Position numbers and translations under genes: made by a program. A model generated the notes under the pieces. It did not search any database, was not told the origin of the DNA, and saw only the letters and a list, made by a program, of their open reading frames with translations. From Clostridiales bacterium (lineage in GTDB: Bacteria > Bacillota > Clostridia > Monoglobales > WRBX01), in contig JAISFC010000026.1 in the NCBI GenBank assembly GCA_031263785.1, positions 2,922 to 66,921 on the forward strand: DNA of 64,000 nt, in the 5' to 3' direction. Positions 1,235 to 57,800 of the stretch are shown here, in pieces. Each line of letters starts with the position of its first letter. Position 1 is the first letter of the stretch.

Positions 1235-4200
1235 TTAATTGCTAACCACCAACGGAATGGGCTGGAGTTTTTCTTTACCGACATATCGGAGGACGGTGGT
1301 GTAATCCGCGGCGTCGACACCGAGATATTCATTAATATTGAAGATTGTCGTGACACCCGCGATGTCTGTGTTGCCAACTTGTCCCTTGATTGTGTTTAAA
1401 TCCGACGTTGTTAATGCGAATTTGTCCGCGGTGGGCAAGTAGAATGCTCCCGCGTACAGGTACGCTGTCCCGCCGACCGTCAGTGGCATAGATTCGTTGA
1501 TTGCCCCTATATTTACGCTCGTTCCGTCGAGGTAGATGTCCGCCCAAAGATAGCTTTCTTCGCGAACCGTCCCGACCACACTTCCGCCGTTGTCGCCAAA
1601 TCGCGAGAATCGGAGCATATATTTCGGCGAAGATTGGTTCGGGTCGCTGCTGACTAAATCATTCGCCACTGTTTGCGGGATTTTCAGCGTATAATTATAC
1701 AGCGTCGAAGCCGCGTCGCCGATTGCCGCCGTCATGTTCATTTCTTGCGTGTATGCCACGCTCCCCACCTGCTTCACAATCACGCCAACACCGTCAACCT
1801 CATACATCTCCACCCGAATCCCCGCGTCCATTTTATCTAAATCGGGCGTGTATCCAATCGCGGAAATAGGAGTCCGTTGCTTGCCAGTGAGCATCGCCCG
1901 CCCCTGCAAACTGATGCTATTCACATCGCCGCTAATCTCGACCGCGGGCATATCCTCAACCGTTATACTTACGTATTCCTGCGTCAAAATCCCGTATTCG
2001 CCGTCCACAAGCAGATACGCGCCAAAGTCGTCCTGATTACTGCATAGGACTCCCAGCCCGTCGATTCCAAAAATTTGGTCGCCCGTGATTCCGTTGGTGT
2101 CATTGTACTCCCCGATAGCAAAACTCGCGCTGGTAGGCACATTTTCCTTGACCCTATAGTGGATTCTAAAGTACACATCTTCGGTTAAAGTGTGGGGCGT
2201 AAGCGGAACATTTTCCTCAACCGTCCAGCTAAGTAGAAATTTCCCTTCCGAATTAATCACGCTCAAAACCTCGCTCGACGAATCGTAATCCATCGCGCTT
2301 TTCAGGAACGTGCCGTTGACGAGCAGTCCCTCAAGACCCTTGGCGTCAAAATCAACTGTTTCAAGACTAGTTATTTCTATAGTATCATTGTCAAAAATCA
2401 TTGGAATCGCGAGGGCGTACGCGTCATAGCCAGTTGCGTCGTCGAAGGATACGTCAATATGCCCGTCATATCCCGCGTTTTTCGAGGTCGCGTCGGGAGT
2501 GAGAATCACCTTCACATCGTCCGCGCCCGCTATTTTCGCGAGTGTTGAGGCATTATTGTTATCCGCCGCGCGGATGTAGGTGTTTTTATACGTTTTTCCG
2601 CCCGCCTTCACGATTACCTCTTCGTCGTCGCTGCCGCTGTCGGGGAGCCACGCGTATATAATGCCCGATTCATCGGCATAAACTCCATTCGTTCCATACT
2701 CCCCCGCCATAATCGCAGACGCCGAACCCGCAACCGCCGCGGTGGTCAGACTCGTCACTCGCGCATTCACCGCCGACGGGTCGTCGAGAGTAAGCGTGTT
2801 CAAATAAACATTCTTCAGCTCACTATTTTTCGGCTGTGGACCACTAAAATTATTGACCTTAACACTTCCCCCGTCGATTGTCACCGTCCCTGTAGCTAGA
2901 TAGATATATCCGCCGCCTATTGCCGCACCATATGAGCCACTTGTCGCCGTTATAGTTCCGCCGGTTATGGTAATTTCACCAAGGTAATCACCGTCACCAT
3001 ATCCGTAGCCTTCATCATAGTCTTTACTGCCGTCTCCGATGCCTGCGCTGTAATATCCGCCTGTTGCTGTTACTTTTCCACCGGTTATGGTTATCGTACC
3101 GCCATTTCCATTTAGACCGCAACCAATTCCTGCAGCTCCATAACCGCCAGTTGTGGCTATCGCACCACCGTTTATGGTGATTTCACCGCCACCGCCATTC
3201 CCTTCATTGCCACCGTTTCCACCACCGATTCCTGAGCCGCCACTCCCGCCAGTAGCGATTATTGTACCACCGTTTATGGTAATTTCTCCCCCACTAGTAC
3301 CATTGCCGCCGCCAATTCCTGCTCCGTTACCGAAGCCGTCGTTGCTACCAACCGCTTCCAGACTTCCCATGCCGTCTATAGTGAGAGTTGAGCCGCCAGA
3401 GGCTTGTAACCCCGCCTTATACCGCCCGCTTTTAAGAGAGTTTTCGCCCACGAGCGTCAAATTCACCGTCGCGCCCGTCATGTCGAACGCACACGCATTT
3501 CCCGTCCCCGAAACATCTATTTTCACGCCGTTTAGCGTAATATTCGCCGTCACTCCCTGCGCAACCTTAACACTATCGTCGGACACATAATTCACCCCGT
3601 CTTGCAGGGATATCGTGTACGTGCCGTCCCGCAAAATCTCCACGGTGTTCCCATTTCGATTGACATAATCCGCATTATCCGCGTTCTCGCCCGTCACCTC
3701 GAGAGGTCGCACCAGCGCGTTTATGTAGAACTCCACAGCCGCCGACGTCGCCGCGTTGTAATTTTCCGTCGCCTCCGTGTTCCCGCGTACCTCGTAATGC
3801 CCCACCGTATTCGGCGCCTCCGCCGCCCACAAATCCAACCCATAGCCCGTGTATTCGTACGTCACCGCCGCCCCACTCGTGTTGCTCGTAACAACCGCGT
3901 CAGGCAGGGTCGTGCCGTAAGTCGTCCCCGATTGCGCAATTTCCAGCGTCGAATTCGCCTTACTTATCGTAAACGCAACTTCGGCGGACATACACCGCGC
4001 ATAGCTCTCGGTCGCCGCCACAATCCCGCGAATCTTATGGATTCCTACCGCCGTCGGCTGCTCCGCGACCCACTCCCCCGCCGAATTATGTTGGTATTCG
4101 TACGTAATCGCGCCGTTGCCGTAGCCCGCCTCAACAATCGGCGCGTCCAAAGCCACCCCAAACACCGTGTCCGCCTGCGAAATTACAAAAGGTGAGTTCG

Positions 4201-6032: not shown

Positions 6033-6109
6033 GGCGGCGTAGCTCAGCCGGTTAGAGCATACGGTTCATACCCGTAAGGTCGGGCGTTCGATTCGCCCCG
6101 CCGCTACCA
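6033..6109 (+). tRNA. tRNA-Met (anticodon CAU), elongator type, CCA encoded
   Basis: The cloverleaf was read by hand. Acceptor GGCGGCG/CGCCGCT, anticodon stem TACGG/CCGTA with loop TTCATAC, T-arm GGGCG-TTCGATT-CGCCC. It has no three G-C pairs in the anticodon stem, so it is not an initiator. It is very similar to the Bacillus elongator tRNA-Met. tRNA-Ile2 (lysidine) is not formally excluded. Confidence 0.9.
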
Positions 6110-6110
6110 C

Positions 6111-6272
6111 GTCGGAACAAAGTTCGCTTACTCCGTTTTCGAGCAAAACCCGCTCGAAAACATCCGCGCGCTTCCTTGTTCCTCCTTCTCGCAAAAAGGC
6201 ACGCTGCTGCGTCGCCTAAGCCCTTGCAAGCGCGGGCTTTTTACGGCGACTTGCGCTACCACCTTTTTGCGG
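6111..6272. ncRNA. copy A of an unnamed ~165-nt structured element (transcribed strand unresolved)
   Basis: Aligns end to end with 48873-49036 and 57242-57413 (reverse complement). Five helices are maintained by compensatory changes (see findings). It starts 2 nt after the tRNA-Met CCA. Confidence 0.6.
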
Positions 6273-6490
6273 CTAAACCACCTTCAAAATAGATATATGT
6301 ATATGGAAGATTTGTGAAATCTTCTTCTTTTTTTCCTTAAAACCACCTTCAAAATAAATATTTATATTTAAGAGTTTTATGAAAACTCATTCTTTTCGCT
6401 TTAAAACCACCTTCAAAATAGATAAATATATGTGAAAGTTTTGCGAAAACTTCTTCTTTTTTTCTTAAAACCACTTTCAAGTCACATAAA
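6273..6490. repeat. 3.5 tandem 64-65-bp modules (AAAACCACCTTCAAAATA box, AT-rich segment, 8-9-bp hairpin, T-run)
   Basis: The CCA of the conserved box is at 6278, 6343, 6407 and 6471. Each unit has a hairpin such as GAAGATTT-GTG-AAATCTTC followed by TTCTTTTTTT. Confidence 0.8.
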
Positions 6491-6560
6491 CGTATTTAGT
6501 TAAATTGCTTACGCATTTATTTTATTTCATTCAAAGATTTTCGCAAGAAAATCTTCCACA

Positions 6561-9162: not shown

Positions 9163-9196
9163 ATTATTCCCCCCGTTATCGGTTTGATTGCGACTC

Positions 9197-9510
9197 GTGT
9201 CGATTGTTCGATTTTTTTGCGATTGCTTTCTCTATTGTCGATTCTTCGATTTTTTTGCGGTTGACGTTGTCGATTGTTCAATTTTTTTGCGATTGTCGTT
9301 CCCGTTGTCGATTCTTCGATTTTTTTGCGATTACTTTGTCGATTCTTGAATTTTCTTGCGGTTGGCTTTGTCGATTGTTCGATTTTCCTGCGGTTGACTT
9401 TGTCGATTCTTCGATTTTCTTGCGGTTGGCTTTGTCGATTGCTCAATTTTTTTGCGGTTGGAACTCCTATTGTCGATTCTTCGATTTTTTTGCGATTCGC
9501 GTTTATCCCA
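9197..9510. repeat. 9-unit tandem array (units 31-38 bp; core TGTCGATTSTTCGATTTTTTTGCGRTTG) filling the cysS upstream region
   Basis: The TCGATT anchor is at 9200, 9238, 9270, 9308, 9339, 9371, 9403, 9435 and 9473. Confidence 0.9.
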
Positions 9511-39312: not shown

Positions 39313-39341
39313 TTGACAAATTTAAAATTTTATGTTATGAT
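39313..39341 (+). promoter_or_regulatory. promoter of rplJ-rplL
   Basis: TTGACA (39313-39318), 17 nt, TATGAT (39336-39341). It is back-to-back with the S10 promoter. Confidence 0.65.
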
Positions 39342-39349
39342 AATAATTG

Positions 39350-39559
39350 TTCCACAGACAACAGGTGGCGCAAACGCGCATAAACCCTGTCGAGGAAGCG
39401 AGAATTACAACACAGTGGCGGAGAATTTCGGTTGAGAATTTTTCAGGTCGCCGTGCGTTACATCAAGGTTGAGCGTTTCTTCTTCTTTTCGTGAGTTATG
39501 TGGAAGGGAGATTTTTTTATGTCTTTGCAACAGACTATCTTAATTATGGAGGTGATTTT
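39350..39559 (+). promoter_or_regulatory. rplJ 5' leader (candidate L10(L12)4 autoregulatory leader)
   Basis: ~210-nt untranslated leader between the promoter and the rplJ start. L10 leaders are established in Firmicutes, but I did not verify the fold. Confidence 0.4.
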
Positions 39560-48535: not shown

Positions 48536-48744
48536 TTTTATGCTCCCTCAAACAATTTACTTCCATCTCGATAACTCGCGCAACCCACAATTACTAAAAT
48601 TCCTTCCATATAATAAGAATATAACACATTATCAAACAAATTGCAACCTTTTTCGCGGACAAAATTCGCAGTTGTACGTTTTTCGCAACAAAAAAGCCGT
48701 CAAATGACCTATCTTATTCATTATTCATTTGCTTGCCTGCAGAG

Positions 48745-48872
48745 TTTTCCGTCAAAAATGAAACTGCATCAAATTCCCAAATGCATTTATTGATTTTGGA
48801 GTGGTTTTTAACGCAAAAAAGGAGTTTTCACCAAACTCCCAAATACATTTATTTCTTTTTAGGTGGTTTTAA
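48745..48872. repeat. two tandem ~61-bp modules related to those at 6273-6490
   Basis: Contains GGTGGTTTTAAA (48861-48872) and GAGTGGTTTTTAA (48800-48812), each preceded by CCCAAATRCATTTAT and a hairpin (GGAGTTTTCACCAAACTCC). Confidence 0.7.
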
Positions 48873-49036
48873 ACCGCAAAAAGGTGGTAGTGAGTAAGTT
48901 TGCGTAAAGACGGCGCGTTTACAAGCCGTTAGCAAACGCGAACGTGCCTTTTTGCGGAGAAGGAGGAGCAAGGGAGCGGGCGGATGTTTTCTTTTGCGTA
49001 CAAAAGAAAACGGAGCAAAGCGGACTTTGCTCCTCC
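48873..49036. ncRNA. copy B of the unnamed structured element, directly abutting the 3' end of tRNA-Ser
   Basis: See findings. H1 48873-48883/48946-48956, H2 48897-48902/48931-48936, H3 48909-48913/48924-48928, H5 48985-48995/49000-49010, H4 48960-48970/49026-49036. Confidence 0.6.
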
Positions 49037-49130
49037 TTGGCGGAGAATGAGAGATTCGAACTCTCGCGCCGGGATTCCCCGACCTAACGGTTTAGCAAAC
49101 CGTCCTCTTCAACCAACTTGAGTAATTCTC
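49037..49130 (-). tRNA. tRNA-Ser (anticodon GCU), class II with long variable arm, CCA encoded
   Basis: Reverse complement is GGAGAATTACTCAAGTTGGTTGAAGAGGACGGTTTGCTAAACCGTTAGGTCGGGGAATCCCGGCGCGAGAGTTCGAATCTCTCATTCTCCGCCA. Acceptor GGAGAAT/ATTCTCC, anticodon loop TTGCTAA, T-arm GAGAG-TTCGAAT-CTCTC. Confidence 0.9.
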
Positions 49131-49172
49131 CACAAGTTTTTATGAACTTTTATCTATATTATTTATACATTA

Positions 49173-49201
49173 AGTATACCTTAAGTCCGAACCGGTGTCA
49201 A
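49173..49201 (-). promoter_or_regulatory. promoter of tRNA-Ser
   Basis: On the minus strand: TTGACA (49196-49201), 17 nt, TATACT (49173-49178). This is the same -35/-10 pair as the tRNA-Met promoter. Confidence 0.7.
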
Positions 49202-53662: not shown

Positions 53663-56443
53663 ATGTTAAAAAAAGTTGTAACCCTCTGCCTCCTATTCTC
53701 CCTCATGATTACAGGGGTACTATCGTTTTTCCCCTCATTAAGCAACTCGGTTCAGGCTCCGAATTTCGCGCAGGCGGCTTCCGCGGACTTCAACGGCAAA
53801 TTTTTCATCAACAAGGATTTTTCCGGTTATAAAGCATCGGACTATTCTTTGGTCAAAACAACGATATACAGCTCCGCGGACATGGAATCGGCGAACATTC
53901 CGCTTTCCACATGGGCAGCTCCCGCGGACCAGCTCAAATACTGCTCGCAAAACGGCTATGTGCCTTCCGGTACCACCGTTTACAACGTAACCATCCACTA
54001 CACTTATGCGGGTCAGAATCAATATGAGCGACTGGGGTACGGCGTGTCGGGCGCATACAAGCAGGTTTGGTCTACGTCCGCCACCACCTTCAACAGCTCG
54101 ACTCTCGCGTATAATGAGCCCGTATCCGCCTCGCTTCCCGCTTCCGACGTCGGCTCAAAGGGCACCGGCACAGTTTCATCGCCCTACTTCCCCGGGATTC
54201 AGGCAGCCGCGCCCACTCCAACGCCCACCTCCGCGTCGCAAAGTTCCATGCCCGGCACCGGCAAATTCTTCTTCCGCACCACCGGCGCAGCTGAACACTT
54301 CCAATCATTATACGTCGGCTCGCAATTGGCGGGTACAATCGCCGCGTACGACTGGCAGACAGGGGCATCGCTGGGGTATTCCACACCAATGTACTACCTG
54401 TACGTGCAGACGAATACGGGGCAGAACGACTCATCGCTGAGCTATGTCGTCGACGGAAGTACAGGGCATTTCGTCAACATTTTCACCACGTCCGCTACCT
54501 CCACCTCGCAGTCCTATTGGGTGACGTCCGTCAACTCGACAAACGGGCTGTACCTCTCCCACTTATCCTCGAACGGCTATTCGACATACCTCGGCAACGG
54601 CTCGCTTTCCAACCCGTATTCCTTGGGACAAAGCGCACCTGCAGTGACTGCCGCGCCCAATCCCAGCCCCACCGTCGGGACGCCGTCAAACATAACATAC
54701 TCCTCGCTGACCTATGCCGGCTATTTATACGCACCATCCACTCCGACGGGCGCAACCTTAACGCGCTGGGAATACAAAACCACGTCAAACGGAACGTGGT
54801 CCGATACCGGTTCCAACAACTCATATTACGCGCCTTCCGTCACGGAGTTTGGCTACTTCTTCCGAATCCGCTATGACGCCCTTTCAGGCTATCAAGGCGG
54901 ACCCGTGTATACAGCGCAAGTTGGTCCGATAACAGTTCCTCCGACACCCTCACCGACACCTTCACCCTCACCGACGCCTTCACCGACTCCATCACCCACA
55001 CCGTCACCCACTCCGTCGCCCACTCCGTCTCCGACACCTTCACCCACTCCGTCTCCGACGCCTTCACCCACTCCTTCGCCCACGCCTTCACCAACTCCAT
55101 CACCGACGCCATCTCCCACACCGTCACCTACACCCTCACCAACTCCTTCACCTACACCATCTCCCACTCCATCTCCGACTCCGTCGCCCTCTCCCATCCC
55201 AAAATACAACGTATCATTCAACACAAACGGCGGCGCACCCACCCCCCCAACTCAGCTCATATCGCTGAACGGACTCGTACAAAAGCCGACAAGTCCGCTC
55301 AAGGCGGGGCTAACCTTCGCGGGCTGGTTCACCAACAACTCATTCGTAACGCTGTGGAATTTCACCTCCAACGTCGTGACCGGGGCGATGACCCTGTACG
55401 CGCGGTGGATTTCGGAAATTTCCGTGGACGTGATTCCCGACCAAATATTCACGGGCGGTCCGCGGGAACCCGCAATAATCGTTCGCAGCGGCTCGGACGT
55501 CCTGAAGAAAAACGTGGATTACACGGTGGATTACGGCAATAATTCCAACATCGGCAAGGCGACGGCGGAGATACGCTTTATCGGGAATTATTTGGGGACG
55601 GAGCCTATTGCGGTGCAGTTTAACATCATTGTAAGCTCGCCGACTCCCACACCCACCTCGAACGTTTCGCCCACGCCCACCTCGAGCGTTTCACCCACGC
55701 CCACCTCAAGCGCACAGCCTACACCTACGGGAAGCCCGTCTCAACCGTCGGCTCCGTTATTGTCCCCCTCGCCAACCGGCAACTCCACTCCGACGCCCAC
55801 GAACAACGGCGGCGGCAACGGCGGCAGCAGCGGCAAAGCGACCCCATCACCGTCTCCGACAGCGGCAAATCCGAGCCCGACCTCCAACAAGCCCTCCATA
55901 CTTTTCGACGATGTGTACGGGCATTGGGCGGAGGACGAAATTTACGACATGGTGGAGCGGGGCATCGCGGAAGGCATGGGCGACGGCACATTCGCCCCGA
56001 ACAGGGCAATAACGCGGGCAGAAATGGTGAAAATGCTCGCGATTATGAGCGGCGACCCACTCGGCGGACGCGAGCCGTTTTTGGACGTGTCGATTGGCGA
56101 CTGGCACGCGCCATATATCGCTTGGGGCTGGAATAAAGGGGTCGTTAAGGGCTATGACGCCATAACCTTCTCGCCGAACCAAACGATTACACGGCAGGAA
56201 ATGATAACGATGACCGCGCGATATTTGCAGTATAAGGGCATAATCCTGCCCGAAGCAGATGTAAATTTCGAGTTCGCGGACAAAGCTAACATCAGCGATT
56301 GGGCAGCGGACGCCGTGGAGGTTGCGAGGAAAACCGGGCTTGCGGAAGGCTTTTACGAGACATTCGGACGCCGATTCTTCTACCCGAACGAATACGCAAC
56401 CCGCGCAGAAGCTGTGGTAATCCTACTTCGCATATTAAGCTAA
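53663..56443 (+). CDS. S-layer-homology (SLH) anchored cell-surface protein with PT-rich linkers and a Listeria-Bacteroides (Flg_new) repeat
   Basis: Signal peptide present. About 20 PTPS repeats are encoded at ~54937-55200. [10 protein letters not shown]...FAGWF...LYARW is a Flg_new-type repeat. There are three C-terminal SLH repeats ([41 protein letters not shown]...). Confidence 0.85.
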
Positions 56444-56700
56444 TCTCTCAAAAAATCCGCAAATGCGGCAGTGCAATACCTCGACCAAACGAATACCAAC
56501 CCACGTGGAAGCTGTGGTAATCCTACTTCGATATTACATTAATCTCTCAAAAAATCCACAAAAATTCGCAAATGCTGCAGCGCAACGCTCCGACCGACCG
56601 AATACCAACCCACGTGGAAGCTGTGGTAATCCTACTTCGCATATGACATTAATCTCTTTAAAAATCCGCAAATGCGGCGGCTCAATGCTCCGAGGCTTGT
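56386..56700. repeat. three tandem 101-109-bp copies of the SLH gene's 3' end plus a small palindrome
   Basis: AATAC anchor at 56391, 56492 and 56601. Each copy contains GAAGCTGTGGTAATCCTACTTCG and a palindrome: CCGCAAATGCGG in copies 1 and 3 (first at 56457-56468), the variant TCGCAAATGCTG in copy 2. Confidence 0.85.
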
Positions 56701-57175: not shown

Positions 57176-57204
57176 TTGACATTTGCCCCAAATAATGTTA
57201 TAAT
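57176..57204 (+). promoter_or_regulatory. perfect consensus sigma-A promoter reading into element copy C
   Basis: TTGACA (57176-57181), 17 nt, TATAAT (57199-57204). Confidence 0.75.
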
Positions 57205-57241: not shown

Positions 57242-57413
57242 ACCGCAAAAGGGTGATAGTGAGCAAGTTTGCGTAAAGACGGCGCGCTTGCAAGCCGTTA
57301 GCCAGAGGGGTCCCCGCAAACGCTTGCGTTTGTGGTGAAGAGGAGGAACAAGGAAGCGTACGGATGTTTTCGAGCGATTTTGCTCGAAACCGTAGTAAGC
57401 GACCTTCGCTCCG
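57242..57413. ncRNA. copy C of the unnamed structured element, located in the 5' leader of a two-gene operon
   Basis: H1 57242-57249/57329-57336 (contains a G-T pair), H2 57267-57273/57315-57321, H3 57279-57283/57294-57298, H5 57366-57375/57382-57390. ~90% identical to copy B over the first 60 nt. Confidence 0.6.
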
Positions 57414-57431
57414 ACGAGGAGTGTGTACAAT

Positions 57432-57800
57432 ATGGATATGCTTTCGGCTACTGAAACCTTGCAAAACGAGGTAAGCGCCGGCGCGGGAGAGCTATCGCGT
57501 GTTATTCGTGTCGGCGGCGAACATTTGGCGTCCGCAATTGAATCGCCAAAGACCTCGTCGACGGAAATTCTTGCAATTTCCAACACATTGATAAGCGATA
57601 TATCGCGCACGGCAAACCGCTTGTCCTCACGCATAAACGAGCTCGCGGACCAAACCGTCGCGCGGCAGGAACCCAACGCGGAGGATATTTCGTCGTCAGT
57701 GAGCCACTCGCTGGAGAAACTAATGGAAAACGTCAGCGCGACCATCATAAATATTAAAGACGTCGTACACAACACTTTAAAGAATTTTATCGAAAATTAG
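57432..57800 (+). CDS. hypothetical 122-aa helical protein
   Basis: GAGGAG (57416-57421) lies 10 nt upstream of the ATG at 57432. The sequence is rich in heptad-like S/T/L/I segments (SNTLISDISRTANRLSSRINELADQ). Confidence 0.6.
   Translation: MDMLSATETLQNEVSAGAGELSRVIRVGGEHLASAIESPKTSSTEILAISNTLISDISRTANRLSSRINELADQTVARQEPNAEDISSSVSHSLEKLMENVSATIINIKDVVHNTLKNFIEN

Follow-up and report, generated by a model that had tools for sequence, protein, structure and literature searches.

A repeated structured element at the 3′ ends of tRNA and tmRNA units in Clostridia, with a terminator-like hairpin and a competing long-range helix

A 64,000-nt stretch of DNA from a Clostridiales bacterium (contig JAISFC010000026.1, positions 2,922 to 66,921; hereafter the window) carries an element of ~165 nt, copy B, whose first base (49037) lies directly after the CCA of a tRNA-Ser gene on the minus strand. 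The 5′ arm of the element can pair in two mutually exclusive ways, either with an adjacent strand to give a terminator-like hairpin, P1, or with a distal strand to give a long-range helix, H4. Comparison of homologues shows, or nearly shows, that both helices are maintained by covariation with the shared arm. The explanation that we favour, and to which we give about an even chance of being correct, is that of a structured RNA element at the 3′ flank of tRNA and tmRNA units, in which P1 would terminate transcription and H4 would fold the trailer of transcripts that read through. The element is apparently an uncatalogued structured RNA absent from Rfam 15, and no description of it was found in full-text literature searches.

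One 5′ arm with two alternative partners

Positions refer to the window and are given in the tRNA sense unless another strand is named. In copy B (minus strand), the tRNA is followed by a 4-nt spacer (49034–49037; AGGA in this copy, CGUC in the family consensus) and then by P1 (49012–49033), in which GGAGCAAAG and CUUUGCUCC enclose the UNCG-type loop UCCG; P1 was identified by a terminator scan and by alignment. The 5′ arm (49033–49025) is common to P1 and H4. Its local partner is CUUUGCUCC (49020–49012) and its distal partner is the strand UUGCUCC-UCCU (UUGCUCCUCCU, 48961–48971), recognised as the 3′ strand of H4 by a 6-bp core and its covariation. A first-pass annotation of the window had described two exclusive pairings of the segment that abuts the tRNA gene, and every one of these pairings exists, but all of its coordinates were 1 nt too low: on the plus strand, CUUUGCUCCUCCU occupies 49025–49037, the loop CGGA 49021–49024, GGAGCAAAG 49012–49020 and AGGAGGAGCAA 48961–48971. 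The 11-bp length given there for H4 is correct for copy B, where the AGGA spacer pairs with UCCU and lengthens the helix. Family-wide, however, H4 is a core of 6–7 bp, and the 4-bp AGGA:UCCU extension is a peculiarity of copy B found in only 1–4 of 45 aligned copies.

The two conformers of the copy B 5′ module are mutually exclusive and nearly isoenergetic, with −31.2 kcal/mol for the long-range form and −29.0 kcal/mol for the local form, a gap of 2.2 kcal/mol. Across the family, the median of local minus distal energy was −1.9 kcal/mol, and 47 of 149 copies lay within 2 kcal/mol. The whole 165-nt copy B folded with z = −6.0 in the tRNA sense and z = −8.0 in the antisense, and none of 200 shuffled sequences folded as well.

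Homologues were collected in two scans. A degenerate pattern made from the most conserved stretch was run against species-representative genomes and returned 56 loci; these loci and the window together hold 63 copies. A second scan, of metagenomes, used a pattern in which variable positions in the 5′ arm and its partners were unconstrained, and gave at least 121 matches in at least 120 contigs, with at least 95 distinct sequences. The homologues thus number at least ~170 in metagenome-assembled genomes (MAGs) of Clostridia and in metagenomes, with roughly 140–150 distinct among the matches listed.

Covariation in homologues had been set beforehand as the test of the two pairings, and both pairings covary with the shared 5′ arm. 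P1 is 91% paired in the 45 aligned copies. The arm and its partners change together in a series of haplotypes, read at positions that the search patterns did not fix and written here as 5′ arm/local 3′ arm/distal strand: GGAGCA/UGCUCC/UGCUCC, GGAACG/CGUUCC/YGUUCC, GGAAUG/CAUUCC/CAUUCC and GGAGCG/CGCUCC/CGCUCC. In a further haplotype the arm GGAGUAAAUU has no local partner and the distal strand is GAAUUUACUCC (GGAGUA/UACUCC). The 6-bp core of H4 was perfect in 129 of 140 distinct copies, compared with 84 on average and 95 at most when partners were shuffled among copies (2000 trials). In a further, gap-free alignment with CGUCGGA and UCCUCCU as its sole anchors, sliding the partner by 1–3 columns lowered pairing from 92% to 43–71%. 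Three pairs covary in this alignment: pair 4 (GC 30, AU 19), pair 5 (CG 46, UA 7) and pair 6 (AU 33, GC 9, GU 8). One strand that covaries with two alternative partners is a rare signature.

While both pairings are conserved family-wide, some copies keep only H4, namely two of the three copies in the window (A and C) and the copies at the homologous loci L061 and L070. Copy A (6110–6277, plus strand) lies directly after tRNA-Met (6033–6109). Its P1 is degenerate, having been lost through two transitions, and H4 has been retained through a compensatory change as GGAACAA:UUGUUCC; the local form (−16.3 kcal/mol) is 10.6 kcal/mol less stable than the long-range form (−26.9 kcal/mol). In the tRNA sense, the copy A strands GGAACAAAG/CUUACUCC have A·C and C·A mismatches that would be G·U pairs on the other strand, and the earlier remark that this hairpin works only on the opposite strand holds. 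The disagreement over strand that it seemed to create between the two tRNA-linked copies is largely removed, copy A having simply lost P1 and kept H4. Copy C (57242–57419, minus strand) has no tRNA and lies antisense inside the 5′ untranslated region of an open reading frame (ORF) at 57437–57800 on the plus strand. It too has lost P1 and kept H4, with the long-range form more stable by 8.3 kcal/mol.

Transcript strand, termination and the order of folding

The tRNA-Ser(GCU) gene (49038–49131, minus strand; ARAGORN, and Rfam tRNA at 56.6 bits) encodes its 3′ CCA and appears to be a monocistronic unit served by the sigma-70-like promoter TTGACA-17-TATACT (49173–49201, minus strand), which matches the consensus at 11 of 12 positions ~40 nt upstream of the gene. 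The next co-directional promoter past copy B is at 48646–48618. Because the element is co-oriented with the stable-RNA gene and starts 0–4 nt after the CCA, it is most likely transcribed as a 3′ trailer from the tRNA promoter.

Family evidence largely settles the RNA strand in favour of the tRNA sense. The loop of P1 is UUCG, UCCG or UACG, with GAAA in two loci, and the exchange of UNCG for GNRA loops makes sense on this strand only. Most long-form copies end in a hairpin of the C(UNCG)G type, GCGCC-U[UCAG]CG-GCGC; in the tRNA sense the hairpins have U tracts on their 3′ side; and in the two helices of the 5′ arm, G·U outnumbers A·C by ~30 to 9 distinct copies. The antisense strand had some early appeal, owing to the G·U pairs of copy C and the antisense folding of copy B, but the tetraloops, U tracts and G·U/A·C counts of the family oppose it. 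A coding role was also rejected. The only ORFs over the element, 48984–49121 on the plus strand for example, keep neither their length nor their frame from copy A to copies B and C, and in the antisense a Shine–Dalgarno (SD)-like AGGAGG stands 17 nt away from the conserved ATG.

The terminator scan in the tRNA sense scored GGAGCAAAG-UCCG-CUUUGCUCC (49033–49012; 9 bp, five of them G-C) followed by GUUUUCUUUU as terminator-like, so that the intrinsic-terminator geometry claimed for the junction with the tRNA CCA stands. When an intrinsic terminator was defined as a stable hairpin with a U-rich tract within 0–2 nt, on the strand of the upstream gene, copy B and 129 of 149 distinct homologous 5′ modules qualified, while copies A and C of the window did not. 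The hairpin that precedes the distal strand is P1 in 115 of these modules and the next hairpin, P2, in the other 14, where a G+C hairpin stands between an A run and a U run. The resemblance to intrinsic terminators of stable-RNA operons is close, with a G+C-containing hairpin and U tract co-oriented with and placed after the last tRNA, and further hairpin and U-tract units follow in the window as in tandem terminators. Ordinary intrinsic terminators, in contrast, show no sequence conservation across orders, and lack ~130 nt of extra covarying structure and a second covarying partner for the 5′ arm.

The first-pass annotation had gone further and proposed a conformational switch or expression platform, in which the choice between P1 and H4 would set termination or read-through after the tRNA. 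The two helices are indeed exclusive, near-isoenergetic in copy B and many homologues, and both covary. The order of transcription argues otherwise. In the copy B trailer the U tract ends at nt 36 and the distal strand starts 30 nt beyond it; across the family the distance is ~25–35 nt, and the distal strand lies after the U tract in all 129 terminator-bearing copies. The minimum-energy fold of copy B contains P1 at trailer lengths of 26–74 nt and H4 only at 76 nt or more. Since the distal strand is still untranscribed at the decision point, it cannot decide termination. Like riboswitch, attenuator and T-box platforms, the element has two exclusive helices that share a strand, one of them a terminator; unlike them, it places the competitor downstream of the U tract rather than making the antiterminator strand first, it is a 3′ trailer and not a 5′ leader, and it has no sensor. 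Neither an aptamer, a leader peptide ORF nor a T-box-like tRNA-binding stem was found upstream, where there is only the tRNA itself, and no Rfam riboswitch, leader or other cis-regulatory family matched even at E values up to 10. Copies without a terminator, moreover, retain H4. Where units stand in tandem, the distal strand of one is made before the P1 5′ arm of the next and is complementary to it, and might in principle serve that next unit as an antiterminator. Taken together, we regard a switch as very unlikely: mutually exclusive helices are insufficient to call one, and transcription order matters.

The copies that lack a terminator after P1 are informative about which helix is the more constant. 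L070 (5551–5723 of its locus) is flanked by tRNA-Pro and tRNA-Glu, with a gap of 14 nt to the next tRNA, and must therefore be transcribed through; it has no U tract or terminator and its P1 is degenerate, whereas H4, P2 and P3 (the domain beyond the distal strand) are intact. L039 has no U tract after P1 but a separate terminator ~70 nt further on, and keeps H4. L061 has only H4, of 11 bp. The persistence of H4 in such copies points to H4 as the more constant helix, which with P2, the pyrimidine tract and the 3′ rod would make up the lasting fold of the trailer RNA, and to P1 as a context-dependent terminator, and P1 looks as if it was built on the 5′ strand of H4 where the operon should end. 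A terminator built on one strand of a selected helix produces three-way covariation, because a change in the 5′ strand forces both partners to follow, and we take this covariation not to be a sign of a ligand- or signal-driven decision. In 95 of 149 copies a U-rich tract, with 5 or more U in 8 nt, comes after H4, and in one subfamily the distal strand has a local 5′ arm of its own. The idea that H4 and this tract form a second terminator was set aside as doubtful on kinetic grounds wherever P1 holds the 5′ arm.

In the explanation that we favour, P1 would fold first and its U tract would halt most polymerases. In the transcripts that read through, the distal strand would displace the 3′ arm of P1 to give an H4–P2 rod, to be followed by a pyrimidine tract, UCCU(U)n, by the P3 rod and, in most members, by the UNCG-capped hairpin. 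P1 would thereby be a gate or attenuator as well as the operon end, and H4 a part of the fold of the read-through trailer. A close analogy in ordered refolding is the hok mRNA, in which a long-range helix between the 5′ and 3′ ends supplants metastable 5′ hairpins. In both, a local co-transcriptional hairpin would be displaced later by a distal strand and both pairings are conserved and covary; hok refolding, however, controls translation and antisense binding, while the element is non-coding and its local hairpin doubles as a terminator. The element may thus offer a natural system for RNA refolding in two ordered stages, co-transcriptional and then post-termination.

Several points weigh against this explanation. 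That transcription runs through the element, stops at P1 and is followed by refolding is read from sequence, and displacement of a hairpin of −13 kcal/mol by a competitor of 6–7 bp may be slow in vivo. The copies share ancestry, which the shuffle controls leave out of account, so that the covariation amounts to at least 4–5 independent haplotype changes and not to 140. Template-switch mutation in quasi-palindromes could also mimic compensatory change without selection on the RNA. Both scans fixed UCCUCC(U), which makes the invariance of that motif in part a product of collection. As to strand, copy B folds better in silico in the antisense (−77.6 kcal/mol, z = −8.0), the 3′ hairpin of short-form copies has a conserved A·C in the tRNA sense that is G·U in the antisense, and copy C is probably transcribed only in antisense, the non-terminating orientation.

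The trailer beyond P1 and its possible roles

Downstream of P1 in copy B comes the hairpin P2, GUUUUCUUUUG-UACG-CAAAAGAAAAC (48986–49011), which in the alignment is 92% paired with compensatory changes in 7 of 8 pairs, and whose 5′ arm (49011–49001) doubles as the U tract of the P1 terminator. A C-rich linker, AUCCGCCCGCUCCC (48972–48985), near-invariant in subfamily 1 and different between subfamilies, leads to the distal strand. The P3 domain (48874–48957) is a long irregular hairpin closed by CCGCAAAAAGG/CCUUUUUGCGG, with many compensatory changes in the closing helix and in inner pairs. It is followed by two tandem units of ~64 nt (48740–48872), each comprising AAAACCACCU, an AT-rich stretch, a hairpin and a U tract, with a terminator-like structure at 48840–48820.

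At Rfam 15 gathering thresholds, the whole window matched only two tRNAs and the ribosomal protein L10 leader. For the region 48600–49200, matches at E values up to 10 were noise only, with no RtT (RF00391), riboswitch or leader family, and 16 homologous loci gave tRNAs only. Annotation pipelines based on Rfam are currently blind to the element, for which the present alignment is a ready covariance-model seed.

A cis role for the read-through RNA, either in processing the 3′ end of the last tRNA or in insulation and fail-safe termination, is more likely than one in trans, because each operon carries its own copy. The element points to an unrecognised step in finishing, insulating or processing tRNA operons in these bacteria. 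The processing idea, taken alone as the explanation of the element, would make it a 3′-end signal of the last tRNA or of tmRNA, with a site for RNase P or another endonuclease that frees the tRNA from its tail. P1 and H4 both begin at the same nucleotide, 4 nt past the CCA, at a precise distance set by the conserved CGUC spacer, and the RNAs that the element adjoins end in CCA and are of any identity, tmRNA included. The 6–7 bp of H4 followed by U-C-C resemble an acceptor stem with N73-C74-C75, and this UCC after the 3′ strand of H4 is near-invariant, also in 5 of 6 copies found independently of the pattern. A cis role of this kind accounts for one copy per operon, and E. coli RNase P can reportedly remove the leuX terminator. 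Yet no T-arm-like hairpin adjoins H4, neither ARAGORN nor the Rfam tRNA model sees a tRNA-like fold, the UCCU of copy B is paired and not free, and the P3 and P4 domains are left without a role. On balance we think it improbable that processing is the explanation. A self-cleaving ribozyme that makes its own 5′ end, HDV- or hatchet-like, was suggested by the exact CCA junction; no Rfam ribozyme matched, and we assign it a low probability.

Alternatively, the read-through product could be a non-coding RNA that acts in trans, transcribed from tRNA promoters and freed by tRNA processing. It might serve as a sponge for RNA or protein, or as a regulator through its exposed, CCUCC-containing pyrimidine tract, with P1 as an attenuator limiting its level. 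UCCUCCU is near-invariant across the family, including 5 of 6 first copies that were independent of the pattern, and stands between two structured domains; the P3 rod covaries and the 3′ hairpin is UNCG-capped. The copy at L070, between its two tRNAs, would be excised by processing of the flanking tRNAs as a discrete RNA of ~170 nt. There are also precedents from E. coli. The RtT RNA (RF00391) consists of 178-bp tandem repeats downstream of tyrT that are co-transcribed, are released by processing and contain a copy of the tRNA 3′ end. The 3′ETS-leuZ, a tRNA 3′ trailer, is said to sponge small RNAs. The present element resembles RtT in having repeated units directly downstream of tRNA genes, but differs in phylum, sequence and fold; the RtT model of Rfam does not match it, and its units at most end in ..YCA. 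Like 3′ETS-leuZ, it would be an RNA from the 3′ external spacer of a tRNA operon, starting directly past the CCA and taking in the terminator of the operon, whereas 3′ETS-leuZ is a single locus with a single-stranded seed before the terminator and the element is multi-copy and bistable, with its conserved strand after the terminator. The presence of many copies in one genome, each of them linked to a tRNA operon, fits a role in cis better, the 3′ modules vary widely, and a generic anti-SD-like seed gives no target specificity. A trans-acting RNA is in our judgement unlikely, if worth keeping in view. We would file the element as a terminator-bearing structured trailer or repeat of tRNA operons. 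Only a few single loci, RtT and 3′ETS-leuZ among them, are known to give functional structured tRNA trailers, while here there are at least ~140–150 distinct copies.

Attachment to CCA ends, spread of the family and neighbouring repeats

Nearly all homologues start 0–4 nt after the last tRNA or tmRNA of a unit, on the same strand. Among 171 detected copies (those in the matches listed), 96 lie directly after a tRNA, 7 after tmRNA and 6 after a previous copy. Many of the remaining copies sit after tRNA 3′ remnants, as is expected when a genomic island integrates into a tRNA gene. In clusters of 5–8 tRNAs (L009, L011 and L043), the element follows the last one. The upstream tRNAs have more than 20 different anticodons, and the hosts in which the element adjoins these tRNAs, or tmRNA, are uncultured Clostridia of several orders from guts and digesters. 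Hosts in the genome scan were nearly all MAGs labelled Clostridia, Christensenellales, Oscillospiraceae or Monoglobus. Two element-bearing contigs, L011 and L052 (JBLNCA010000006.1 and JBLNCA010000005.1), come from a MAG labelled Burkholderiales, probably a binning or labelling error; all other genome matches are from Clostridia/Bacillota.

The P1 haplotype is not tied to the identity of the tRNA. A haplotype fixed for each tRNA, as under pure vertical descent, was rejected, several haplotypes being found per tRNA: tRNA-Arg(CCG) and tRNA-Met each have 4–5. A search for other strains with the VanZ protein of the window gave a single short contig, which stops before the tRNA. That the element supplies the CCA was also rejected, for in these loci the CCA is encoded by 192 of 202 tRNAs, with or without an element following.

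These features raise the question of a selfish interspersed repeat, either BIME/MITE-like or a retro-copied RNA that joins CCA ends by template switching, whose structure would promote its own spread and which selection would merely tolerate at operon ends. The element is multi-copy, and tandem copies are common, with a spacing of ~200–250 nt; several tandem units finish in ..YCA immediately ahead of the following one. The 5′ junction does not vary, but the 3′ modules may be long, short or truncated, haplotypes are not bound to tRNA identity, and the window copies are mosaic, A and C sharing P2 and the distal strand, and B and C sharing P3. Copy C and L031 occur in unrelated contexts and in the non-terminating orientation. 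Similar multi-copy, mosaic, tandem families with stable hairpins 3′ of units are REP/BIME of E. coli, BOX of pneumococcus and bcr1 of the Bacillus cereus group, but the element is strictly attached to the CCA of tRNA or tmRNA, is much longer and shows multi-helix covariation. Neither a REP-like GTAG palindrome nor a RAYT was found near element copies. All-versus-all clustering of 710 ORFs from the 56 loci gave no transposase, integrase, reverse transcriptase or other recurring family, and Pfam matches among 10 window ORFs were to housekeeping genes only (FtsW, CysS, HflX, VanZ and an SLH protein). The alignments contain no terminal inverted repeats or clear target-site duplication, with a constant 5′ end (CGUCGGAGC..), and 2.9 million viral contigs gave 1 match. 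UNCG/GNRA swaps and covariation in several helices point instead to selection on a transcript. A selfish repeat seems to us about as improbable as a processing signal.

There is also a small chance, which we would put among the lower of those considered here, that the element represents a new class of RNA associated with tRNA ends, an acceptor-end mimic 4 nt past the CCA that either attracts an RNase P-type cut for the maturation of the last tRNA or tmRNA of an operon or is an RNA-level parasite of CCA ends. In the parasite version, a reverse transcriptase would possibly switch templates from the 5′ end of the element onto the CCA of tRNAs, tmRNA or other copies. This would explain the CCA junction with any tRNA, the constant 5′ and variable 3′ ends, and the ..YCA ends of tandem units.

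In a group of loci (L010 at ~2123–2327, L012 at ~3510–3829, L024, L026, L040, and L041 at ~195–405), a different insert of ~150–200 nt lies between the last tRNA and the element. It carries a bidirectional terminator, a conserved stretch GG..TTCGAACC[CT]TGAGA[AG]GG, and a hairpin (..GCCAGTGGC..) between an A run and a U run. The insert ends in a 12–25-nt duplicate of the upstream tRNA 3′ end, CCA included, and looks like a small element family that targets tRNA 3′ ends. The L041 insert had no Rfam match.

Units of ~64 nt like those past copy B also follow copy A, where four of them (6263–6534, plus strand) separate it from its neighbour, the convergent ftsW. Each unit of the two arrays has the make-up given above for copy B, with compensatory changes in the hairpin, and AAAACCACCU occurs after the element in L061 as well. 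To judge from their sequence, the units look like arrays of back-up terminators, as might be needed to shield neighbours from strong tRNA promoters.

Upstream of the antisense of copy C there is a perfect sigma-70 promoter (57176–57204, plus strand; TTGACA-17-TG-TATAAT, 12/12). The leader of ~230 nt is the antisense of copy C and ends at the SD and ATG of the 121-aa ORF at 57437–57800, which has no Pfam match. The SD of this ORF (GGAG) can pair with CUCC, the antisense of the element 5′ arm. L031 shares the arrangement, its element abutting an antisense gene start, AGGAGGAAAATGG.

Other repeats and features were noted in the window. At 56397–56693, three tandem units of ~100–110 nt, each CCGCAUUUGCGG with a U run, lie on the minus strand in the same sense as copy C and overlap the 3′ end of the SLH-protein gene. 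That gene (53663–56443; 926 aa, SLH/Flg_new) contains at 54909–55232 a 12-nt periodic repeat in 18 or more registers, which presumably encodes a repeat of four residues. Between cysS and the next minus-strand gene, at 9165–9497, stand about ten 32-nt units in tandem (TTGTCGATTCTTCGATTTTTTTGCGGTTGACG), each with a small TCGA..TCGA palindrome and a T run on the plus strand. The ribosomal protein L10 leader (RF00557, 56.1 bits), an ordinary feature, is at 39334–39526 on the plus strand, upstream of rplJ.

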